DNA from: Micromonospora sonneratiae
GTDB taxonomy: Bacteria; Actinomycetota; Actinomycetes; Mycobacteriales; Micromonosporaceae
DNA length: 64,000 bases
Reading direction: 5' to 3'
Assembly (NCBI RefSeq): GCF_042679305.1
Contig: NZ_JBHTMP010000017.1
Location: 13,551 to 77,550, forward strand
This document shows, one piece after another, positions 3,246 through 58,594 of this stretch (its first letter is position 1; each line of letters begins with the position of its first letter). The notes below the pieces were generated by a model. That model did not search any database. It saw only the letters and a list, made by a program, of their open reading frames with translations, and was not told the origin of the DNA. The position numbers and the translations under genes are program-made.

Positions 3246-3902
3246 ATGAACGGCACGCTGGCGTACGTCGTGGTCACGCTGAGTTGTCTTGTCGCGGTTG
3301 CCGGGGTGGTGGTGGCCGTCCTCGCCGTACGGGCGGCCCGGAAGAAGGCGGAGCAGGCCGCCAAGGCGACGAAGACGCCGGCCGACCCGTTCCGGTCCGC
3401 CGACGATGACGCCGACGCGCTGCGGGGGGATCCACGACGGCTACAGCCCGGCGACATCGTGGAGATCCGGCACACGTCGTACGGCGTGCGCGGCACACTA
3501 CGCTTCACCGAGGGGGACTGGAGCTGGACCGAGCACCTGCTCGACGACGCCGGTGGCACGAAGCGCTGGCTCTCCGTCGAGGAGGATCCCGACCTGGAGC
3601 TGGTGCTCTGGACCGAGGAGCCGGCAGCGACGGTGACCCCCGGCAAGCCCACCATCAACTTCGACGGGCGGCGCTTCACCCGCAAGGAGTCGGGCCGGGC
3701 CCGGTACACCGCCATCGGCACCACCGGGCTCAACCCGACCGGCACCGTGGCCTACCACGACTACACGGCCGGCGAGGCGCGGCTGTCGTTCGAGTCGTAC
3801 GGCGACAGCGGCAAGTGGGAGGTGGGCCGGGGCGAGCGGCTGCATCGGGCCGAGGTGCAGATCTACCCACAGGCCGGCCAACCTGGCAAGGTCATCAGCT
3901 GA
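3246..3902 (+). CDS. DUF4178-like protein with N-terminal TM anchor
   Basis: ATG 3246 follows GGAGAGGA. TM helix AYVVVTLSCLVAVAGVVVAVLAV, then GDIVEIRHTSYGVRGTLRFTEGDWSWTEHLLDDAGGTKRWLSVEED, which matches the DUF4178 pattern as I recall it. The stop overlaps the next start (TGATG). Confidence 0.75.
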   Translation: MNGTLAYVVVTLSCLVAVAGVVVAVLAVRAARKKAEQAAKATKTPADPFRSADDDADALRGDPRRLQPGDIVEIRHTSYGVRGTLRFTEGDWSWTEHLLDDAGGTKRWLSVEEDPDLELVLWTEEPAATVTPGKPTINFDGRRFTRKESGRARYTAIGTTGLNPTGTVAYHDYTAGEARLSFESYGDSGKWEVGRGERLHRAEVQIYPQAGQPGKVIS

Positions 3903-12523: not shown

Positions 12524-15070
12524 CTACAGCCGTGGATCGACCGGTTCCGACTCACAGGCGAGGATGGCGAAGACCAACTCGTGTCGACGCCACAGCGGAG
12601 CACCCTCCGCCAGGCGGTCCAGAGCCGCCAACCCGAGCCCGTGCTCACGTAGCGCCAGCCCTCGCTTACGGCCCAGGGACCGCTGCCGCAGCGCTGCGAG
12701 CTGCTCCGGTTCGGTGTACTCCGGCCCGTAGATGATCCGCAGGTACTCCCGCCCACGGCACTTCACACCCGGCTGGAGCAGTCGACCCTTCCCGTCGACC
12801 GCCGCCAGCCCGGCGTACGGCTTGACCACCATGCCCTCGCCCCCGGCCGCGGTCAGCTCCAGCCACCACTGCGTCGCCTCCGCCACCGCCGCGTCGTCGT
12901 CGAGGTCCACGATCCGGCGTCGGGTCGGAGTGAACAACGCGGGGTCGGCGTCGTGCAGCCGGTCCGCCATGGCCAGGTGCCAGCCGTGGTCCCGGCCCGC
13001 GTGGGATGCGCCCTGACTGGCGAGTACGGCGAATGGGGCGAGCGTCACACCGTCCAGCCCGTCCGTCGGTGCCACGTACGCCCGGTAGGCGGCGGTGTAA
13101 CCGGCCACGTCTGCCTGCCGGCGGGACATCCGGTCCCGCAGTCCGGTCACCGGCAGGCCACGCCCGGCCGCCCGGTCCAGCACCTCCAGTACGGCGGGCA
13201 GCGCGGCCCGGCTGGCCGCCCCGACACTGGCGTACTGGTCGCGGATGAGTCCCATCGCCTTCGCCGACCAGGGCAGCAACTCACAGTCGAGCAGCAGCCA
13301 GTCGGTGTCCAGTTCGGCCCAGAGGCCGGCAGTGGTCACGGCGGACCGGACCCGGGCCAGCAGTGCCTCGTCCAACGGGCTCCCGAAGAAAGGTCGTCCG
13401 GTACGGGTGTAGACCACCCCGCCACCCGGTACCGCATCCGCCCCGGCCAAATGACCGGTTTCCTCCCGGCAGACCAGAACCACCGCGCGGGAGCCCATGT
13501 GCTTCTCCTCGCAGACCACCCGATCCACGCCGGCCGCCCGGTAGTCGGCGAATGCCTGTGCCGGGTGCTCCAGGAACCCGTCGACGGTGGAGGTCGAGCA
13601 CGGTGCCATCGTCGGCGGCAGCCACGGCAGCCAGTGGGGGTCGACGGAGAACCGGCTCATCACCTCCAGTGCTGCCGCCGCGTTCTCCGCCGCGACCGTC
13701 ACCTTCCCGTAGCCGTAGTCGAGGTGCCGTCGTCCGGTCACGTCGGCGAGATCGAGTACGTCGTCCTGGCGTACCGGTTCGGCGGCGACGGGAACCAGCG
13801 GCCGGGCCGGCGGGTAGTACTCCTTCGCGGCCGGTACCGAGACGAGGTCGCGTTCCGGGTAGCGCAGGGCGGTCAGCGAACCACCGAAGACGCAGCCGGT
13901 GTCGATGCAGATCGTGTTGTTGACCCACTCCGGGGTCGGGGTCGGGGTGTGCCCGTAGACCACCATGGCACTGCCCCGGTAGTCGCGCGCCCACGGGTAG
14001 CGCACCGGCAGGCCGTACTCGTCGGTTTCGCCGGTGGTCTCCCCGAACAGCGCGAACGCCCGTACCCGCCCGGATGCCCGGCCCTGGTACTCCTCCTTGA
14101 GTCCGGCGTGCGCGACCACGAGCCGCCCGCCGTCGAGCAGGTAGTGGCTGACCAGACCGTCGATGAAGGTGGCCGCCTCGGCGACGAAGGCCGGCTCTTC
14201 GGCTTCGAGCTGGGCCAGTGTCTCGGCCAGGCCGTGCGACACCGTGACGTTGCGACCACGCAGCTTGCGCAGCAACTTCTGCTCGTGGTTGCCCGGCACG
14301 CAGATGGCGGTGCCGGCCGCGACCATCCCCATCACCAGGCGGAGCACGCCCGGCGAGTCCGGGCCGCGGTCGACCAGGTCTCCGACGAAGACCGCCGTAC
14401 GGCCGGCCGGGTGCGTCGCGCCGACCGGACGCCCGTCGGTGTCGGTGTGCAGCGTCCAGCCCAACCGGACCAGCAGTGCCTCCAGTTCAGCCCGGCAACC
14501 GTGCACGTCACCGATGATGTCGAACGGACCGGTCAGCTCCTTCCGGTCGTTGTACAGCTTCTCGTACCGGATCTCGACAGTGTCGATCTCCTCCGGGCCG
14601 CGCAGCACGTGTACCTTGCGGAACCCCTCCCGGCCCAGGCGGCCGATGGAGCGTTGCAGGTCGCGTCGCATCCGGCCGAGGACCTGGCGACCGAAGGTAC
14701 GGTCGGCCCGGCTCTGCGTACGCTCCCAGCACAGCGGCTCGGGTACGTCGAGCACGATCGCCACCGGGAGCACGTCGTGTCCCCGGGCGAGCTGGACCAG
14801 CCCGGCACGGGCGTGAGGTTGCAGGTTGGTGGCGTCGACGACGGTCAACCGGCCGGCCCGGAGCCGCTTACCGGCGACGTAGTGCAGCGCGTCGAACGCC
14901 TCCGCCGAGGCGGACTGGTCGTTCTCGTCGTCGGCCACCATGGCCCGGAACGCGTCGGACGAGAGCACCTGGGTGGGCGCGAAGTGCCGGCGGGCGAAGG
15001 TCGACTTGCCCGAGCCGGAGATGCCGACCAGGGCGACCAGGGCCAGTTCGGGAATGTCGATGCTGGTCAC
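12524..15070 (-). CDS. pnkp: Polynucleotide kinase-phosphatase with ligase domain (bacterial Pnkp, RNA repair)
   Basis: GTG 15070 overlaps the hen1 stop (GTGA). Kinase P-loop GISGSGKST. Metallophosphatase motifs GDVHGC, GDLVDRGP, GNHE. Adenylyltransferase lysine motif EEKHMGSR. The upstream 216 codons of the 1064-aa ORF overlap hen1 out of frame and are rejected. Confidence 0.9.
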   Translation of the reverse strand: MTSIDIPELALVALVGISGSGKSTFARRHFAPTQVLSSDAFRAMVADDENDQSASAEAFDALHYVAGKRLRAGRLTVVDATNLQPHARAGLVQLARGHDVLPVAIVLDVPEPLCWERTQSRADRTFGRQVLGRMRRDLQRSIGRLGREGFRKVHVLRGPEEIDTVEIRYEKLYNDRKELTGPFDIIGDVHGCRAELEALLVRLGWTLHTDTDGRPVGATHPAGRTAVFVGDLVDRGPDSPGVLRLVMGMVAAGTAICVPGNHEQKLLRKLRGRNVTVSHGLAETLAQLEAEEPAFVAEAATFIDGLVSHYLLDGGRLVVAHAGLKEEYQGRASGRVRAFALFGETTGETDEYGLPVRYPWARDYRGSAMVVYGHTPTPTPEWVNNTICIDTGCVFGGSLTALRYPERDLVSVPAAKEYYPPARPLVPVAAEPVRQDDVLDLADVTGRRHLDYGYGKVTVAAENAAAALEVMSRFSVDPHWLPWLPPTMAPCSTSTVDGFLEHPAQAFADYRAAGVDRVVCEEKHMGSRAVVLVCREETGHLAGADAVPGGGVVYTRTGRPFFGSPLDEALLARVRSAVTTAGLWAELDTDWLLLDCELLPWSAKAMGLIRDQYASVGAASRAALPAVLEVLDRAAGRGLPVTGLRDRMSRRQADVAGYTAAYRAYVAPTDGLDGVTLAPFAVLASQGASHAGRDHGWHLAMADRLHDADPALFTPTRRRIVDLDDDAAVAEATQWWLELTAAGGEGMVVKPYAGLAAVDGKGRLLQPGVKCRGREYLRIIYGPEYTEPEQLAALRQRSLGRKRGLALREHGLGLAALDRLAEGAPLWRRHELVFAILACESEPVDPRL

Positions 15071-16659
15071 AGCGATTCCTTTCCACGCGCTTCGGTGCCG
15101 CTGCCCGTCGGCGCCTGGGGGCCGTTGTCCGTCGGCGCCTGAGGCTGGTTGTCCGCCGGCGATTCGGCACCGCTGCCCGCCGTCGGCGTGCCGCTGCTGA
15201 TTCGGCTGAAGACGGCGAGTTGGCTGGAGCAGCCCACCTCGGGGTCGGCCTCCCCCACGCCGCTGATCGACACCGTGTAGCCGTACGTCCGGCCGACCTC
15301 GTGTGCCCAGTCGGCGAACTGGGCGCGGGCCCACTCGAAGCGGTGGTCGGTGTGCCGCATCGCCGTCGGGGCCAGCCCCTCGTACCGCACGTTGTATTCG
15401 ACGTTCGGCGTCGTCACGATCACCGTGGTCGGCTGGGCGTGACCGAAGACGGCACTGGCCAACGCCGGCAGCCTTGGCGGGTCGACATGCTCGATGACCT
15501 CCATCAGCACGGCGGCGTCGAAGCCGCGTAGCCGGTCGTCGCGGTAGGTCAGCGCCGACTGCCACAGCCTGATCCGGTCCCGCTGCCGTTGCGGCAGTCG
15601 GTCCAGGCGCAGCCGACGTTCGGCCACCGCCAGCGCCACCGAGGAGACGTCGGTACCGACGATCTCGGTGAAGCGTCGGTCGCGGATCAGGTCGGCCAGC
15701 AGTGACCCACCACCGCACCCCAGGTCGAGTACGCGGGATGCGCCGCTGTCGACCAGGGCCGCCAGTACGGCCGTCCGGCGCTGCGCCGCCAGCGGCTGCC
15801 GCCCGACCGTCGGTTCGGCGGTGTCTGGTTCGACCGTGTCCGCCGTCGGCAGTTCGTCCCGGGACCGGAGTTCGGTCAGCCGGAGTTCGGCCGCCTGGGC
15901 TTCGTTCAGTTGGGTGAGTGCCTTACCGGCCAGCGCCCGTCGATGGGCGAGGTACCGGCGGATGATCAGCGACCGCTCCGGGTGCCGGGCCAGCCAGCCC
16001 TCGCCGGCCCGGAGCAGCTTGTCGATCTCGTCGGGGGCGACCCAGTAGTGCTTGGCGTCGTCGAGCACGGGAAGCAGGACGTAGAGATGGTTGAGTGCGT
16101 CGGCGAGCCGTACCGAACCGGTCAGCTTGAGATCGACGTACCGGCTGGCACCCCAGGACGGATGCTGGTCGTCGAGCGGGATCGCCGTGGCGGAGACGGT
16201 CCAGCCCAGCGGGGTGAACAGCCGATCGGCCAGGTCCGCCCCGCCTCGGCAGCGGAGCACCGGTACGCCGATCTCCAGCGGAATGGGCGTGCCGGTCAAC
16301 TCCGGGCGGTCCTTCGACGTACCCCGCAGGGCGGACCGGAACACCTTGGCCAGCGCGGACGCCAGCAGGCTGGAGGCGGCGTACGGCCGGTCGTTGACGT
16401 ACTGGCCGAGGGTGAAGCCCTCGGGTGCCGTACCCCGGCCGTTGTCCCTGCCCCGGCCAGGAGCCAGCCGGAGCGGGTCGACGTCGAGCAGCAGGGCAGC
16501 GGTGCAACGCGCCTCGGTCGCTTCCGGATAGAACACATGGACGGTGCCGGTCGGCACGTCGAAGGAGTGCGTCCGGTCCGGGTGCTTGACCAGCAGATAG
16601 CCGAGGTCGGTGGCCGGCTGGTGGGTGGTGGAGACGGTGAGCAGCACGCCGGACATCAT
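15067..16659 (-). CDS. hen1: Bacterial Hen1, 3'-terminal RNA ribose 2'-O-methyltransferase
   Basis: Starts MMSGVLLTVSTTHQPATDLGYLLVKHPDR (Hen1 N-terminal domain). SAM-binding RVLDLGCGGGSLL and EVIEHVDPPRL. Low-complexity C-terminal tail. Confidence 0.9.
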   Translation of the reverse strand: MMSGVLLTVSTTHQPATDLGYLLVKHPDRTHSFDVPTGTVHVFYPEATEARCTAALLLDVDPLRLAPGRGRDNGRGTAPEGFTLGQYVNDRPYAASSLLASALAKVFRSALRGTSKDRPELTGTPIPLEIGVPVLRCRGGADLADRLFTPLGWTVSATAIPLDDQHPSWGASRYVDLKLTGSVRLADALNHLYVLLPVLDDAKHYWVAPDEIDKLLRAGEGWLARHPERSLIIRRYLAHRRALAGKALTQLNEAQAAELRLTELRSRDELPTADTVEPDTAEPTVGRQPLAAQRRTAVLAALVDSGASRVLDLGCGGGSLLADLIRDRRFTEIVGTDVSSVALAVAERRLRLDRLPQRQRDRIRLWQSALTYRDDRLRGFDAAVLMEVIEHVDPPRLPALASAVFGHAQPTTVIVTTPNVEYNVRYEGLAPTAMRHTDHRFEWARAQFADWAHEVGRTYGYTVSISGVGEADPEVGCSSQLAVFSRISSGTPTAGSGAESPADNQPQAPTDNGPQAPTGSGTEARGKESL

Positions 16660-25007: not shown

Positions 25008-26300
<1,293 letters not shown>

Positions 26301-26342
26301 CCCACCCCACCCCTGCCCCTGCCCCTGCCCCTGCCCCTATGC

Positions 26343-26403
26343 GTTGATCATGAAGTTGTTGTCGCAAAAACCGGCGTGTCGCGGTGACAACTTCATGATC
26401 AAC
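26343..26403. repeat. Palindromic element copy 1 (probable purA terminator)
   Basis: GTTGATCATGAAGTTGTTGTC...GACAACTTCATGATCAAC, a 17-bp perfect stem. Homologous in both arms and part of the loop (AAACCGGC) to the copy at 27446-27506. Confidence 0.85.
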
Positions 26404-26435
26404 CCGGGCGGGCAACGCGGGTGGGGCGTGGGAAA

Positions 26436-26480
26436 GTTATCCACAGGGGGCGTTCCGTTACCCGGGGTTATCCACAGGGG
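26436..26480 (+). promoter_or_regulatory. Two direct repeats GTTATCCACAGGGG, 31 bp apart (candidate operator)
   Basis: Copies at 26436-26449 and 26467-26480, 40-80 nt upstream of the DUF559-like gene. Each contains TTATCCACA. Confidence 0.4.
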
Positions 26481-26517
26481 CTTGGATTGATCTTTGCGGG
26501 CCGCGACAGTGGCCTCC

Positions 26518-27450
26518 ATGGATTCGATGACGCTGATTCGGAAGATTGCCGCTAGCCAGGACGGGACCGTCACGCTCACCCAGGCGAACGCGGCTGGTCT
26601 GACCGTTCACGAGGTGCACCGACTGTGCCGTTCCGGACGTTGGCGTCGCCTGGCCAGAGCCGGCTATCTCGTTGATGCCGACCGGTACGCGGAGATCCCG
26701 CGCCGGGTACGCATCCGGGCCGCCGTCGCGTCGTTCGGCCGGAGTGCGGCGGCGGTGCTGGACACTGCCGCAGAGCTGCACGGGATCGCGGGCACTCGGC
26801 GGACGGAGGCGATTCACGTCTCCCTGCCAGGTCCAGCCGTCCGGCCCAGCCGGGACACCGATCCAGCTGTGATCATCCATCAACTGACCATCGGTGCGGC
26901 GCAGCTCTGCGACGTGGCGGGTATCCCGGTCACTCGTCCGGTGCGTACGGTTGCCGACATCATCGTCCGCGCGGACCGTTTCACGGCCGTCTCGGTGCTC
27001 GACTCGGCGGTCAACCGCCAGGTTGTCACGGCAGAGGAGTTCGCGATGATTCCGGGGCTGATCCGTGGCCGACGTGGTGCCGTCGCCGCTCGCGGTTACC
27101 TTGCCGAGTGCGATGGACGCGCCCAGTCGCCGCTGGAGACAAGGTTGAGGCTGCGGTGTGTGGACGGCAGGGTGGCGCCTGACGTGTTGCAGCATGAGGT
27201 TCGCGACCGGGACGGCTGTCTGCTCGGCGTCGGTGATCTGGCCTGGCTGGCGGCACGCCTGATCGGGGAGGCGGATGGCCGGGAGGTGCACGGCACGCCT
27301 GAGGCCGTCTACCAGGACCGGTGGCGGCAGAACCGGATCGTCAATGCCGGTTGGCGGATTCTGCGGTTCACCTGGGACGACACGATGCGGCCGGACTACA
27401 TCCCGTTCGTCGTCCGGAATGCGCTCGCTGCCTCCCCTCTACCGCGTTGA
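26518..27450 (+). CDS. AbiEi-like wHTH N-terminus + DUF559 (Vsr-like endonuclease fold) C-terminus protein
   Basis: N-terminus LIRKIAASQDGTVTLTQANAAGLTVHEVHRLCRSGRWRRLARAGYL. C-terminus SPLETRLRL...GEADGREVHGTPEAVYQDRWRQNRIVNAGWRILRFTWDD. Start ATG 26518 or TTG 26494. The stop TGA lies inside palindromic copy 2. Confidence 0.8.
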   Translation: MDSMTLIRKIAASQDGTVTLTQANAAGLTVHEVHRLCRSGRWRRLARAGYLVDADRYAEIPRRVRIRAAVASFGRSAAAVLDTAAELHGIAGTRRTEAIHVSLPGPAVRPSRDTDPAVIIHQLTIGAAQLCDVAGIPVTRPVRTVADIIVRADRFTAVSVLDSAVNRQVVTAEEFAMIPGLIRGRRGAVAARGYLAECDGRAQSPLETRLRLRCVDGRVAPDVLQHEVRDRDGCLLGVGDLAWLAARLIGEADGREVHGTPEAVYQDRWRQNRIVNAGWRILRFTWDDTMRPDYIPFVVRNALAASPLPR

Positions 27451-27506
27451 TCATGAAGCTGTTGTCCGAAACCGGCCCGATTCTGGACAACAACTTCATG
27501 ATCAAC
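27446..27506. repeat. Palindromic element copy 2
   Basis: GTTGATCATGAAGCTGTTGTCC...GGACAACAACTTCATGATCAAC, a 22-bp stem with one mismatch, 35 nt upstream of the purD start. Confidence 0.85.
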
Positions 27507-27540
27507 GGGGAGGGAGGGGGGGCGCGTAGGATCGGGCATC

Positions 27541-28794
27541 GTGCGCGTACTTCTCATCGGAAGCGGCGGGCGGGAGCATGCGCTCGCGCTCGGCCTGGCC
27601 GCTGATCCCTCGGTCCAGCAGCTCACCGCCGCCCCGGGCAACCCCGGCATCGCCACCGTCGCCGAGTTGCGCCAGGTGGACGCCGTCGACCCGGCCAGCG
27701 TCGCCGCGCTTGCGGTGGAGACCGGCGCCGACCTCGTGGTGATCGGCCCGGAGGCCCCGCTGGTGGCCGGGGTCGCCGACGCCGTACGCGCCAAGGGCAT
27801 CGCCTGCTTCGGCCCGTCCGCCGCCGCCGCGCAACTGGAGGGCTCGAAGGCGTTCGCCAAGGAGATCATGACGGCGGCCGGGGTGCCGACCGCCCGCGCC
27901 CCCACCTGCGTGACCGCCGAAGAGGCGGAACACGCGCTGGACGACTTCGGTGCGCCGTACGTGGTCAAGGACGACGGGCTGGCCGCCGGAAAGGGCGTGG
28001 TGGTGACCGACGACCGGGCCGTCGCGCTGGCCCACGCGGCTGCCTGTGAGCGGGTGGTGGTCGAGGAGTACCTCGCCGGACCCGAGGTTTCGCTGTTCGT
28101 GGTCACCGACGGCGAGGCAGCGGTGCCGCTGCTCCCGGCACAGGACTTCAAGCGGATCGGCGACGGCGACACCGGCCCGAACACGGGTGGCATGGGGGCG
28201 TACGCGCCACTGCCCTGGGCGCCGGCCGGACTGGTCGACGAGGTCATGCGCGACGTGGTGCATCCGACGCTGGCCGAGATGCGTCGCCGGGGCACGCCCT
28301 TCGCCGGCCTGCTCTACGTCGGCTTGGCGATCACCGCCACCGGTCCGAAGGTGATCGAGTTCAACGCCCGGTTCGGCGACCCGGAGACCCAGGTCGTACT
28401 CGCCCTGCTGGAGACGCCGCTGGCCGGGCTGCTGCACGCCGCCGCGACCGGCACGCTCGGCCAGCAGCCACCGCTGCGCTGGCGGCCGGGTTCGGCGGTC
28501 ACCGTCGTGGTCGCCGCCGCGGGCTACCCGGACGCGCCGCGCACCGGTGATGTGATCACCGGTGCGGACCAGCCCGGGATCATCCACGCCGGCACCCGTC
28601 GGGACGCCGACGGTACGTTGCGCTCCTCGGGCGGCCGGGTCCTCTGTGGTACGGCCATCGGCCCGGATCTCACCGCTGCGCGGGAAGCGGCGTACGCCCT
28701 GGTCGACGGGGTTGGCCTGGCCGAGTCCCAGCATCGGCGGGACATCGCCCTGGCGGCGGCGCAGGGACGGATCCAGCCCCCGACCGCCGGCTGA
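27541..28794 (+). CDS. purD: Phosphoribosylamine--glycine ligase
   Basis: GTG start. VRVLLIGSGGREHALA, ATP-grasp core YVVKDDGLAAGKGV, GDTGPNTGGMGAY, EFNARFGDPETQ. Confidence 0.95.
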   Translation: MRVLLIGSGGREHALALGLAADPSVQQLTAAPGNPGIATVAELRQVDAVDPASVAALAVETGADLVVIGPEAPLVAGVADAVRAKGIACFGPSAAAAQLEGSKAFAKEIMTAAGVPTARAPTCVTAEEAEHALDDFGAPYVVKDDGLAAGKGVVVTDDRAVALAHAAACERVVVEEYLAGPEVSLFVVTDGEAAVPLLPAQDFKRIGDGDTGPNTGGMGAYAPLPWAPAGLVDEVMRDVVHPTLAEMRRRGTPFAGLLYVGLAITATGPKVIEFNARFGDPETQVVLALLETPLAGLLHAAATGTLGQQPPLRWRPGSAVTVVVAAAGYPDAPRTGDVITGADQPGIIHAGTRRDADGTLRSSGGRVLCGTAIGPDLTAAREAAYALVDGVGLAESQHRRDIALAAAQGRIQPPTAG

Positions 28795-56649: not shown

Positions 56650-58074
56650 GTGACGAGTATCCCGAACGTCCTTGCCAACCGGTACGCCTCGGCAGAACTG
56701 GCCGCCCTCTGGTCGCCGGAGGAGAAGATCCGGATGGAACGGCGGCTCTGGCTGGCCGTACTCCGGGCGCAGCGGGATCTCGGCATCGCGCTGCCCGACG
56801 GGGTGGTCGAGGCGTACGAGCGGGTGCTCGACCAGGTCGACCTAGCCTCGATCGCGGCCCGGGAGCGGGTCACCCGGCACGACGTGAAGGCGCGGATCGA
56901 GGAGTTCAGCGCGCTGGCCGGGCACGAGCACATCCACAAGGGCATGACCTCGCGGGACCTCACCGAGAACGTCGAGCAGCTACAGGTACGCCGCTCGCTG
57001 GAGCTGATCCGGGACCGGGTGGTCGCCACCCTGGCCCGGCTGGCCCGCCTGGCCGTGGAGCACTCCGACCTGGTGCTGACCGGCCGGTCGCACAACGTCG
57101 CGGCGCAGGCCACCACGCTGGGCAAGCGGTTCGCGTCGGCGGCCGAGGAACTGCTGATCGCGTACGAGCGGCTGGACGACCTGATCGACCGGTACCCGTT
57201 GCGTGGCATCAAGGGGCCGGTCGGCACCGCCGCCGACCAGCTCGACCTCTTCGACGGCGACCCGGAGAAGGTCGCCGAGCTTGAGCGCCGGGTCGCCACC
57301 CACCTCGGCTTCTCCCGGGTGCTGGACAGCGTCGGCCAGGTCTACCCGCGTTCGATCGATTTCGACGTGGTGTCCGCGTTGGCGCAGACGGCCGCCGCCC
57401 CGTCGTCGCTGGCGACGACCATCCGGCTGATGGTTGGCCAGGAGCTGGCCACCGAGGGCTTCAAGCCGGGGCAGGTCGGCTCCAGCGCCATGCCGCACAA
57501 GATGAACACCCGGTCCAGCGAGCGGGTCAACGGCTTCGCGGTGATCATCCGGGGTTACCTGTCGATGATCGGCGAGCTGGCCGGTGACCAGTGGAACGAG
57601 GGCGACGTCTCCTGCTCGGTGGTCCGCCGGGTGGCGCTACCGGACGCCTTCTTCGCCGCCGACGGGCTGTTCCAGACGTTCCTCACCGTGCTCGACGAGT
57701 TCGGCGCGTACCCGGCGGTGATCAACCGCGAGTTGGACCGGTTCCTGCCGTTCCTGGCGACCACGAAGATCCTGGTCGCGGCGGTACGTCGGGGCGTCGG
57801 CCGGGAGGTCGCCCACGAGGCGATCAAGGAGCACGCGGTCGGCGTGGCGCTGGCCATGCGGGAGCAGGGGGCGACCGAGAACGACCTGTTCGACCGGCTG
57901 GCCGCCGACGAACGGCTGGGCCTGACCCGTACCGAGATCGACAAACTGGTGGCCGACCGGGCCGACTTCGTCGGCGCGGCTCCGGCGCAGGTACGGGCGG
58001 TCGCCGGGCGGGTCGCCAACGTGGTCGCGGCGCACCCGGAGGCAGCCGCCTACCAACCCGCCCCGATCCTCTGA
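56650..58074 (+). CDS. purB: Adenylosuccinate lyase
   Basis: LANRYASAELAALWSPE, GRSHNVAAQATTLGKR, GSSAMPHKMNTRSSE signature. Confidence 0.95.
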   Translation: MTSIPNVLANRYASAELAALWSPEEKIRMERRLWLAVLRAQRDLGIALPDGVVEAYERVLDQVDLASIAARERVTRHDVKARIEEFSALAGHEHIHKGMTSRDLTENVEQLQVRRSLELIRDRVVATLARLARLAVEHSDLVLTGRSHNVAAQATTLGKRFASAAEELLIAYERLDDLIDRYPLRGIKGPVGTAADQLDLFDGDPEKVAELERRVATHLGFSRVLDSVGQVYPRSIDFDVVSALAQTAAAPSSLATTIRLMVGQELATEGFKPGQVGSSAMPHKMNTRSSERVNGFAVIIRGYLSMIGELAGDQWNEGDVSCSVVRRVALPDAFFAADGLFQTFLTVLDEFGAYPAVINRELDRFLPFLATTKILVAAVRRGVGREVAHEAIKEHAVGVALAMREQGATENDLFDRLAADERLGLTRTEIDKLVADRADFVGAAPAQVRAVAGRVANVVAAHPEAAAYQPAPIL

Positions 58075-58138
58075 CCGGGGCCGCCCACCGGGTGGCCGCC
58101 AGCTGCGGGGCGTGGGAGTCGGCTGCGCGGTGCGGTCG

Positions 58139-58594
58139 TCAGCTGCGGGGCGTTGGAGTGGTGGCCGCGCTGCCCAGGTCGGGGGCGCTGGCCGGCTCCG
58201 AGATGGCGCCCAGGCTGGAGCTGCTGGCCGGTTGAGCGGTGTCGGTGGCCGCCAGCGGCTGGTCCGGGGGCGGTACGTCCGCCACCGGGTACGCGATCAC
58301 GGCGGTGCCGTACGCGCACAGCTCCATCCACATCTCGCCGACCTCGCGGTGGTCGAAGCGCATCCCGATCACCGCGTTGGCACCGAGGCGGCGGGCTTCC
58401 TCACCGAGTTTGACCACCGAGTCGGTACGCCATCGGGTCAGGTTCTCCGGCGCCTTCGGGTCGTACGCGCCACCGCGTAGGTTCTTGACGCCTTCCCGGT
58501 ACGGGTTACGCGTCCGAGCCATCGATGACACTACTTCGCCAAGGATCTGGCGGATCTCGTAGCCAGGTAGATGGTCCATCGTCACGACCAGCAC
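58139..58594 (-). CDS. YbjQ/UPF0145 family protein with disordered C-terminal tail
   Basis: TMDHLPGYEIRQILGEV...LGANAVIGMRFD...CAYGTAV. Confidence 0.8.
   Translation of the reverse strand: MLVVTMDHLPGYEIRQILGEVVSSMARTRNPYREGVKNLRGGAYDPKAPENLTRWRTDSVVKLGEEARRLGANAVIGMRFDHREVGEMWMELCAYGTAVIAYPVADVPPPDQPLAATDTAQPASSSSLGAISEPASAPDLGSAATTPTPRS

Follow-up and report, generated by a model that had tools for sequence, protein, structure and literature searches.

Why should a single gene between purA and purD lie between two copies of the same palindrome? This question arises in a 64,000-nucleotide stretch of Micromonospora sonneratiae contig NZ_JBHTMP010000017.1 (the window), where two homologous hairpins enclose a gene for a 310-amino-acid protein with an AbiEi-type winged helix-turn-helix (wHTH) part and a Vsr-like nuclease domain. 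A preliminary description had read the hairpins as a REP/MITE-like element, either duplicated around a small selfish cassette or serving as its entry site. Comparison with other loci, genomic or metagenomic (labelled here with L-numbers such as L020 and L121), shows that the bracket belongs to the gene family and is not due to chance. The reading that we favor, tentatively and at somewhat less than even probability, is a partnership like that of repetitive extragenic palindromes (REPs) with REP-associated tyrosine transposases (RAYTs), in which a non-HUH nuclease and its cognate palindromes would make up one conserved module.

To define the module, the hairpins were located in three ways. The arm GTTGATCATGAAGTTGTTGTC matched at 26343-26363 (+), 26383-26403 (-), 27446-27466 (+) and 27486-27506 (-), where shuffles of the 64-kb window lead one to expect 0 matches. 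A profile hidden Markov model built from 76 family members found two sites only in the window (E=1e-17 and 4e-13), and each copy folds into a long hairpin, with z-scores of -6.6 and -10.2 relative to shuffles. Arm, profile and fold thus confirm the two hairpins described earlier at 26343-26403 and 27446-27506 around one gene between purA and purD. Copy 1 does start 43 nt past the end of purA (26300), and copy 2 does provide the stop codon of the enclosed gene, a TGA at 27448-27450 within the core. The features are as follows.

25011 to 26300, + strand: purA (adenylosuccinate synthetase; Pfam Adenylsucc_synt, E=6e-184), left neighbor, context only
26301 to 26342, strandless: C-rich 5' arm of hairpin copy 1, including a CCCCTG microsatellite (direct repeat; composition)
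26343 to 26403, strandless: hairpin core copy 1, 61 nt, with a 21-bp stem and a loop with CGGCGTGTCG (arm match, fold, profile)
26404 to 26432, strandless: G-rich 3' arm of copy 1, with a canonical G-quadruplex (G4) motif (composition, G4 scan)
26436 to 26449, + strand: box 1, GTTATCCACAGGGG, operator-like and resembling a DnaA box (direct repeat)
26467 to 26480, + strand: box 2, GTTATCCACAGGGG, 31 bp past box 1 (direct repeat)
26518 to 27450, + strand: gene for the 310-amino-acid AbiEi-wHTH/Vsr-like nuclease (Pfam, PADLOC, AlphaFold 2 model, Foldseek)
27426 to 27445, strandless: C-rich 5' arm of copy 2, within the coding tail (…AASPLPR) (inverted repeat, fold)
27446 to 27506, strandless: hairpin core copy 2, 61 nt, with a degenerate loop motif (arm match, fold, profile)
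27507 to 27526, strandless: G-rich 3' arm of copy 2 (inverted repeat, fold, G4 scan)
27541 to 28794, + strand: purD (glycinamide ribonucleotide synthetase; Pfam GARS_N, GARS_A, GARS_C), right neighbor, context only

Two statements about the element held in part. Its length of 61 nt is right for the core, but the whole unit is larger, as C-rich left and G-rich right arms around each core lengthen the pairing. Homology does reach into the loop, where the copies share the string AAACCGGC, but that string is offset by 2 nt between them. The true family loop motif is CGGCGTGTCG, kept in copy 1 and lost in copy 2.

We then asked how far the bracket extends. Both hairpins are present around the gene (X) at purA-X-purD in L020, L121, L122, L123, L139, L142, L222 and L224, and an orthologous counterpart of copy 1 was found in L020, L121, L122, L139-L142 and L224. 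The stop codon falls within the downstream hairpin in L121, L122 and L123 also. A metagenome scan with the orthologue alignment gave 80 loci with relatives at 29-75% identity, in which hairpins were sought with an explicit inverted-repeat finder; the minimum free energy of sliding 80-nt windows was dropped as a detector because it does not discriminate in high-GC DNA. Most metagenomic loci have a 45-80-nt hairpin on either side of the gene, the two being alike within a locus and lineage-specific in sequence. We compared the 300 nt upstream of the gene with the 300 nt downstream, taking as cut-off the 99th percentile of cross-locus pairs (which by definition pass at about 1%), and used as control randomly chosen pairs of windows, 900 nt apart, from other parts of these loci. 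Matching upstream and downstream hairpins were found in 29 of the 48 nonredundant metagenomic loci, versus 0.5% of the random window pairs. The downstream hairpin of these relatives begins, at the median, 4 nt ahead of the last base of the stop codon, and a median of 52 nt separates the end of the upstream hairpin from the gene start.

These frequencies bear on the simplest alternative, that an ordinary resident gene lies by accident between two spacers that both hold a common repeat. With a copy about every 84 kb, a genome should hold roughly one adjacent pair by chance, and other pairs exist. An interim reading of the bracket as coincidental, which drew on the restriction of the gene to the purA-purD loci among the element loci and on the bracketing of other genes, was dropped after the metagenomic loci. 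Every orthologous locus with both flanks has the bracket, as do distant relatives whose hairpins and neighbors differ, and the frequency of the bracket against the controls effectively refutes chance adjacency, to which we assign almost no probability. The view that hairpins and gene are one unit is strongly supported, as relatives elsewhere are bracketed likewise.

The hairpins also follow the gene through changes of context and of sequence. Beside AMP-ligase and tsaE (L157 and L219), they retain the CGACACGCCG loop motif. Between 4HBT and tadA, in Micromonospora pattaloongensis and Phytohabitans (L220 and L223), a second paralogue has hairpins of the GTGATCAGGG type, with one solo copy at a distance of 1.4 kb. 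In Nocardiopsis (L221), where the context is methylmalonyl-CoA mutase, four hairpins of its own type lie within 2.4 kb; extra own-lineage hairpins near the gene occur in both L220 and L221. At purA-X-purD itself, the two flanking copies change in concert between lineages, giving GATCATGAAGTT, GATCAAGGG, GATCATGGGG and GATCATGAAGTTAGC types and an inner-stem variant in L123. In the complete genome CP192020.1, one hairpin type accounts for the copies beside the gene and for four solo copies far from it. The site of the second paralogue (L220 8552-10984 and L223 9823-10948) is a conserved TetR-4HBT-X-tadA arrangement with its own hairpins and boxes, and M. pattaloongensis therefore has two gene-hairpin modules.

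Next, we examined the protein. Residues 1 to about 185 form an AbiEi-type wHTH and AbiEi C-domain, and residues about 200-310 form a Vsr-like PD-(D/E)xK domain. The 310-amino-acid protein is matched by Pfam AbiEi_4 (E=1.3e-8) and PADLOC AbiEi (E=2.6e-20), while its Pfam scores for DUF559 and MTES_1575 are below the gathering thresholds (17.0 bits versus 20.6 and 24.5 versus 38.2); the precomputed annotation of some orthologues carries PF18741 or PF04480. The AlphaFold 2 model has a predicted local distance difference test score of 89. With Foldseek, its first ~200 residues match AbiEi (6y8q) and Rv2827c (1zel) with probability 1.0, and its last ~100 match the Vsr-like catalytic domain of I-Bth0305I (3r3p) with a target-normalised TM-score of 0.66 and probability 1.0. 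E207, D240, E251 and D253 are invariant in 58 orthologues. The fold assigned at the outset, a wHTH plus a Vsr-like nuclease, is thus borne out by PADLOC and the Foldseek matches, and the modelled structure suggests that the product is a sequence-specific DNA-binding nuclease.

Is this gene a recent arrival? Well over 100 orthologue clusters at 59-70% identity were found, the named ones essentially all from Micromonospora/Verrucosispora, plus Phytohabitans, and a homologue search from the Phytohabitans protein returned Micromonospora almost exclusively. The order purA-X-purD occurs in all six of the genome-derived Micromonospora loci with both neighbors (L020, L121, L122, L123, L222 and L224). 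Where only the purD flank is present (L034), the gene adjoins purD, and purA is the left neighbor in L020, L121, L122, L139-L144, L222 and L224. Ratios of nonsynonymous to synonymous substitution (dN/dS) of 0.15-0.32 indicate purifying selection, and the divergence of the gene parallels that of purD. Synteny, purifying selection and purD-like divergence argue that the gene is a functional resident passed on vertically rather than a recent insertion. The proposal of a recent or selfish cassette in the Micromonospora lineage is therefore not supported. No purA-purD site that is empty but for a single element, such as the preliminary description had suggested looking for, was present among the loci fetched. 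It had also held that the same gene between unrelated flanks in related genomes would point to an ancient gene with ordinary terminators; that pattern was not seen because the flanks in related genomes are the same element. Within ±10 kb, no integrase family was found among called genes or Pfam matches, and no AbiEii nucleotidyltransferase is among the neighbors (purA, purD or, in relatives, other housekeeping genes).

The hairpins outside the module were surveyed with a 17-nt arm scan of one representative genome per species, which matched at least 119 stretches. Among the matches listed, ~90 are Micromonospora or Catellatospora loci, and nearly all of these have the partner arm at a distance of exactly 44 nt, making up the 61-nt element. 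Arm matches in Streptomyces, Nocardioides and other taxa were rejected as elements, being single arms within coding sequence. The oriented family consensus is GTTGATCATGAAGTTGTTGCC-N8-CGGCGTGTCG-YG-GCAACAACTTCATGATCAAC, and most loops hold CGGCGTGTCG. Almost no variation is seen in the outer 15 bp of the stem. Positions 16-21 covary, with 92% of cells paired and 42 double-change cells versus 20±3.5 in shuffles. The dispersed copies and shared arms confirm that the two hairpins of the window belong to one repeat family rather than being independent terminators, and copies in many Micromonosporaceae loci uphold the description of this family as dispersed and like REPs or miniature inverted-repeat transposable elements (MITEs). 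As in MITEs, there are terminal inverted repeats, here the 21-bp arms. Longer solo hairpins of 75-81 nt are also found in Micromonospora (L024 95-169, L064 6603-6677 and L222 18544-18624), namely GTCGATCATGGAGTTGTGGTG…, GTCGATCATGCAGTTGTGG… and GTCGATCTTGCAGTTATGG…, so several repeat classes coexist.

Besides the copy by which each locus was recruited, 8 further copies were counted in 672 kb, about 1 per 84 kb, from which we estimate tens to about 150 copies per 7-Mb genome. Half of the sampled copies have orthologous sites in at least two species, and an arm-core-arm unit (~140 nt) present in L044 is absent from L111, the flanks being 93-94% identical. Shared sites and presence/absence together show that the family is both old and occasionally gained or lost. 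The window itself has a convergent spacer without a hairpin at about 58036-58186; its ortholog is filled in L055 (488-548) and L114 (1660-1720), and the spacer is a natural empty site in this genome. Several short assembly contigs terminate at or a few bases from a copy (L037, L047 and L035), as one would expect of a repeat that breaks short-read assemblies.

Another alternative is that the hairpin-gene-hairpin unit is, or was until recently, a transposon- or homing-type cassette whose ends or target are the palindromes, with the solo hairpins as MITE-like derivatives or footprints. The presence/absence polymorphism of the arm-core-arm unit agrees with such a history, as do the occurrence of the module in at least four genomic contexts in different lineages and the resemblance of the nuclease to a homing endonuclease catalytic domain (3r3p). 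Indels of ~2.4 kb with one gene, seen 7-30 nt from the core in L065 (4683-7044) and L009 (1600-4048) by comparison with orthologous loci, agree with it too. However, within lineages the gene is single-copy, syntenic, under purifying selection and co-diverging with its neighbors. No purA-purD site is empty among the fetched loci, and no target-site duplication was recognisable in filled/empty pairs. The element had no match in a BLAST search of plasmids and nothing beyond single-arm chance matches in a scan of viral contigs, the gene likewise being absent from plasmids and viral contigs, and no recurrent transposase was found beside solo copies among 187 neighboring ORFs (about 0.7 Mb sampled). 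We therefore consider a mobile cassette improbable. One of the two indels holds a 740-amino-acid membrane or hydrolase-like ORF, and the other holds a 601-amino-acid ORF that by eye, no domain search having been run, appears secreted and arginine-deiminase-like; the elements may point to hot spots where genes are gained or lost.

What the solo copies do is suggested by where they lie. All copies are intergenic, and almost all are at gene 3' ends: the genes on either side converge in 28 cases, run in tandem in 39 and diverge in only 4, and the core begins a median of 28 nt past a stop codon. Across the family, C makes up 57% and G 19% of the 40 nt on the left, and the 40 nt on the right mirror this (57% G), a skew that fades over about 60-100 nt. 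A canonical G4 motif is found in 48% of arms, versus 1.3% of background windows. Duplexes of an element's own two flanks (-42.0 kcal/mol) are no more stable to any extent that matters than duplexes with other flanks (-40.9 kcal/mol); a specific extended palindrome formed by each element's flanks was therefore rejected, and the arms are compositional rather than specific. They belong to the element, since genes without an element have no C skew past the stop. The arms are microsatellite-like (CCCCTG x5 at 26301-26342; GAGGCCT, GGTGGCCGG and similar elsewhere), and the strand 3' of the hairpin is strongly G4-prone.

Such positions fit a further alternative, in which a toxic gene is insulated by generic, lineage-specific bidirectional terminators of a REP-like kind, or like the TRITs of Mycobacterium tuberculosis, that block read-through and are kept alike by local gene conversion, with no specific recognition by the protein. 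TRITs, 147 conserved palindromic bidirectional terminator-like hairpins near stop codons for which a binding factor of unknown identity was suspected (Gardner et al. 2011, PMC3152330), are a precedent, and the solo copies here are likewise palindromic and at gene 3' ends. A C-rich tract followed by a hairpin also fits the model of a Rho utilization (rut) site plus pause by which Rho-dependent terminators are predicted (bioRxiv 10.1101/2022.06.01.494293). In addition, pairs of copies enclose other genes, and the constant boxes upstream of the gene (see below) would be the likelier wHTH target. Yet mycobacterial RNA polymerase requires a U-tract for intrinsic termination (PMC3993855), and no U-tract or terminator-like site was found in 26200-27650, where the 3' flank is G-rich and the canonical form of an intrinsic terminator is lacking. 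Insulation also leaves unexplained the matched pairs in 60% of the family, in diverse hosts and contexts, versus 0.5% of controls; the consistent end of the ORF within the hairpin; and an outer arm sequence that is near-invariant across genera, beyond what structure calls for. We judge insulation unlikely.

If the hairpin acts in the transcript, the protein might instead recognise it as RNA and affect 3'-end formation, processing or stability of ~100 mRNAs, regulating itself through the hairpins of its own untranslated regions (UTRs). Solo copies do lie in 3' UTRs, and the stem covariation suits an RNA hairpin and a DNA hairpin equally. The authors of the TRIT study proposed a dedicated factor that binds a double-stranded RNA motif (PMC3152330). 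The asymmetric loop motif, however, occurs in both orientations relative to the upstream gene and flips between orthologous sites (22 orthologous pairs have the same orientation and 10 the opposite one), and wHTH/AbiEi and Vsr-like are DNA-acting folds. A partnership at the level of RNA is thus, to our mind, very improbable. Searches of Rfam gave no family match for the hairpins at the gathering threshold; matches at permissive thresholds, which were generic long hairpins (miRNA precursors) plus a sub-threshold Ms_IGR-8, were rejected. The latter, between copy 2 (window 27439-27516) and the Mycobacterium small RNA Ms_IGR-8, reached 27 bits where gathering is 44, and may hint at similar mycobacterial gene-end hairpins.

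The spacer between copy 1 and the gene contains a second conserved signal. Upstream of the gene, every orthologue has two direct boxes, GTT(A/G/T)TCCACAGGGG, with a spacing of 21-22 bp in L020, L121 and L122 and in L139 and L142, and of 31 bp here, one helical turn more. Among 138 loci, the box was found solely upstream of this gene, bar one single match in a locus of a non-actinobacterial metagenome-assembled genome (L093), and boxes accompany relatives down to about 36% identity (26 of 59 loci, versus 6 of 59 for an in-gene control). Each GTTATCCACAGGGG box contains a perfect TTATCCACA, which we take to be the E. coli-type DnaA-box consensus. The boxes could be an operator for the wHTH, a promoter element or a DnaA site.

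With these parts in hand, we return to the favored reading, a REP/RAYT-like partnership. In its order of hairpin, operator boxes, gene and hairpin, the module would hold the enzyme's cognate palindrome twice, and the palindrome with its arms would have spread in the Micromonosporaceae to solo positions at the 3' ends of unrelated genes. AbiEi antitoxins are reported to autoregulate by binding inverted repeats at their own operators; the AbiEi part here may likewise bind the inverted-repeat arms and/or the GTTATCCACAGG boxes, leading to autoregulation. The nuclease domain may nick at or near the palindrome, and the repeats might thereby be copied, excised, homogenised or subjected to biased repair. 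Nicking followed by repair or copying would account for outer arms that hardly vary and for flanking copies that change in concert. The solo copies, which in either reading direction present a C-rich tract, a strong hairpin and a G-rich tract, probably serve as bidirectional transcript-end structures as well, acting through Rho-type termination or 3'-end protection. In its full form, an actinobacterial counterpart of REP-RAYT in which a domesticated AbiEi-wHTH/Vsr-like nuclease binds, nicks and spreads, homogenises or maintains its lineage's palindromes while the repeats are co-opted as bidirectional gene-end signals, the reading is possible but doubtful.

Several points weigh against this partnership. 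The link between protein and hairpin is drawn from sequence comparison, and a lone PD-(D/E)xK nuclease is not known to drive transposition. No significant hairpin pair was found in 19 of the 48 relatives. In 259 kb of metagenomic loci, the lineage hairpins are almost confined to the gene flanks, and the comparison of solo-copy dispersal covers Micromonosporaceae and Nocardiopsis. Hairpins occur in Catellatospora as well. Unrelated genes are bracketed too, a DUF1707-like gene in L008 and a major facilitator superfamily transporter gene in L005, and among the ~90 element loci the nuclease gene itself is present at the purA-purD loci only. Gene conversion between repeats 1 kb apart could by itself keep the copies alike. 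The boxes are constant where the hairpins vary, and may be the target of the wHTH in place of the hairpins. Finally, REP-RAYT repeats have a defined polarity, and the loop orientation counted above is not fixed, so a polarity of that kind is missing here.

Comparison with known systems places the module more precisely. In the logic of REP-RAYT, two repeats of a genome-dispersed class flank an enzyme gene that is single-copy and vertically inherited. As in the REP/REPIN-RAYT systems of proteobacteria, there are many copies here of a short extragenic imperfect palindrome, two repeats of the dispersed class enclose a single-copy gene (in CP192020.1, with the four solo copies), and the repeat sequence covaries with the enzyme lineage. 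Unlike them, the enzyme is an AbiEi-wHTH plus Vsr-like PD-(D/E)xK protein and not a Y1 HUH transposase (IS200/IS605 TnpA-like), the hosts are Actinobacteria, and the repeat is longer (the 61-nt core and compositional arms), without a GTAG head; activity on the repeat is predicted here. The defining HUH transposase being absent, the module is not a member of the REP-RAYT family. TRITs are the closest actinobacterial precedent for the solo copies: both are conserved hairpins restricted to an actinobacterial genus or family, with ~100 copies, bidirectional and at or over stop codons. They are set apart by description, in that the sequence differs, the hosts here (Micromonosporaceae) fall beyond the range reported for TRITs (Mycobacterium), and no associated gene has been described for TRITs, whereas C- and G-rich arms and a bracketed nuclease gene are found here.

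The enzyme has relatives of its own. Its N-terminal 185-200 residues agree with the AbiEi wHTH and C-domain of the type IV AbiE toxin-antitoxin system (AbiEi 6y8q and Rv2827c 1zel), but a nuclease domain is fused to them, there is no AbiEii partner, and the repeats not only flank the gene on either side but also occur in other parts of the genome. The C-terminal fold and invariant acidic residues agree with the Vsr/DUF559/EDxHD group (I-Bth0305I), but the Pfam scores are under the family cut-offs. It is not a Dcm-Vsr pair, as there is no adjacent cytosine methyltransferase, and not a classical homing endonuclease, as it lies outside introns and inteins and is not polymorphic. An integron cassette also has an imperfect palindrome at or over the ORF stop and a related one before the ORF. 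Here, however, neither IntI nor attI is nearby, the order of core sites is reversed (GTTGATC…GATCAAC versus the attC order RYYYAAC…GTTRRRY), and a single gene stands amid housekeeping genes with solo copies genome-wide.

In the literature searched, we found no description of the element or of its association with the gene. What would be new is a REP-like repeat joined to an enzyme gene of a different enzyme class in a different phylum, a claim that depends on the predicted protein-hairpin link. If it is true, a large group of uncharacterised actinobacterial proteins annotated as AbiEi or DUF559 would gain a function, and REP-like repeats could pair with an enzyme class besides HUH transposases. 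The protein would also be a candidate for the missing factor of sequence-conserved gene-end hairpins such as the mycobacterial TRITs, and the hairpins would mark transcript ends in antibiotic-producing Micromonospora. In practical terms, the hairpins break short-read assemblies and are recombination substrates.

The last of these is seen in rearranged loci. In two species (L123, 2844-3974, and L156, 1-730), boxes and gene are inverted between the hairpins, and the outer flanks stay with purA and purD. Because the inner segment is inverted and the outer flanks are unmoved, the breakpoints lie within the palindromes, and recombination between the bracketing palindromes would be able to invert the gene. 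In L156, a microsatellite (CCGGTCTGG/CCGGTCTCG)n stands ahead of the hairpin. In L140 and L141, at about 3400-3440, the downstream core is missing and a G-rich arm (ggggaggggg) is left at the gene end; since the stop codon of the hairpin is gone, the ORF continues for ~77 codons over the purD start. The gene is truncated in the metagenomic purA-purD loci L183 (215-867), with hairpins on both sides, and L152 (283-1153), with the upstream hairpin, and these two may represent stages of decay.

Two other genes of the window were recorded in passing. One, at about 15011-16527 (-), encodes a Hen1-like methyltransferase, by name of an RNA-repair-type family, and the other, from about 33013 onward (+), encodes a very large AAA_5/DUF3686 protein.

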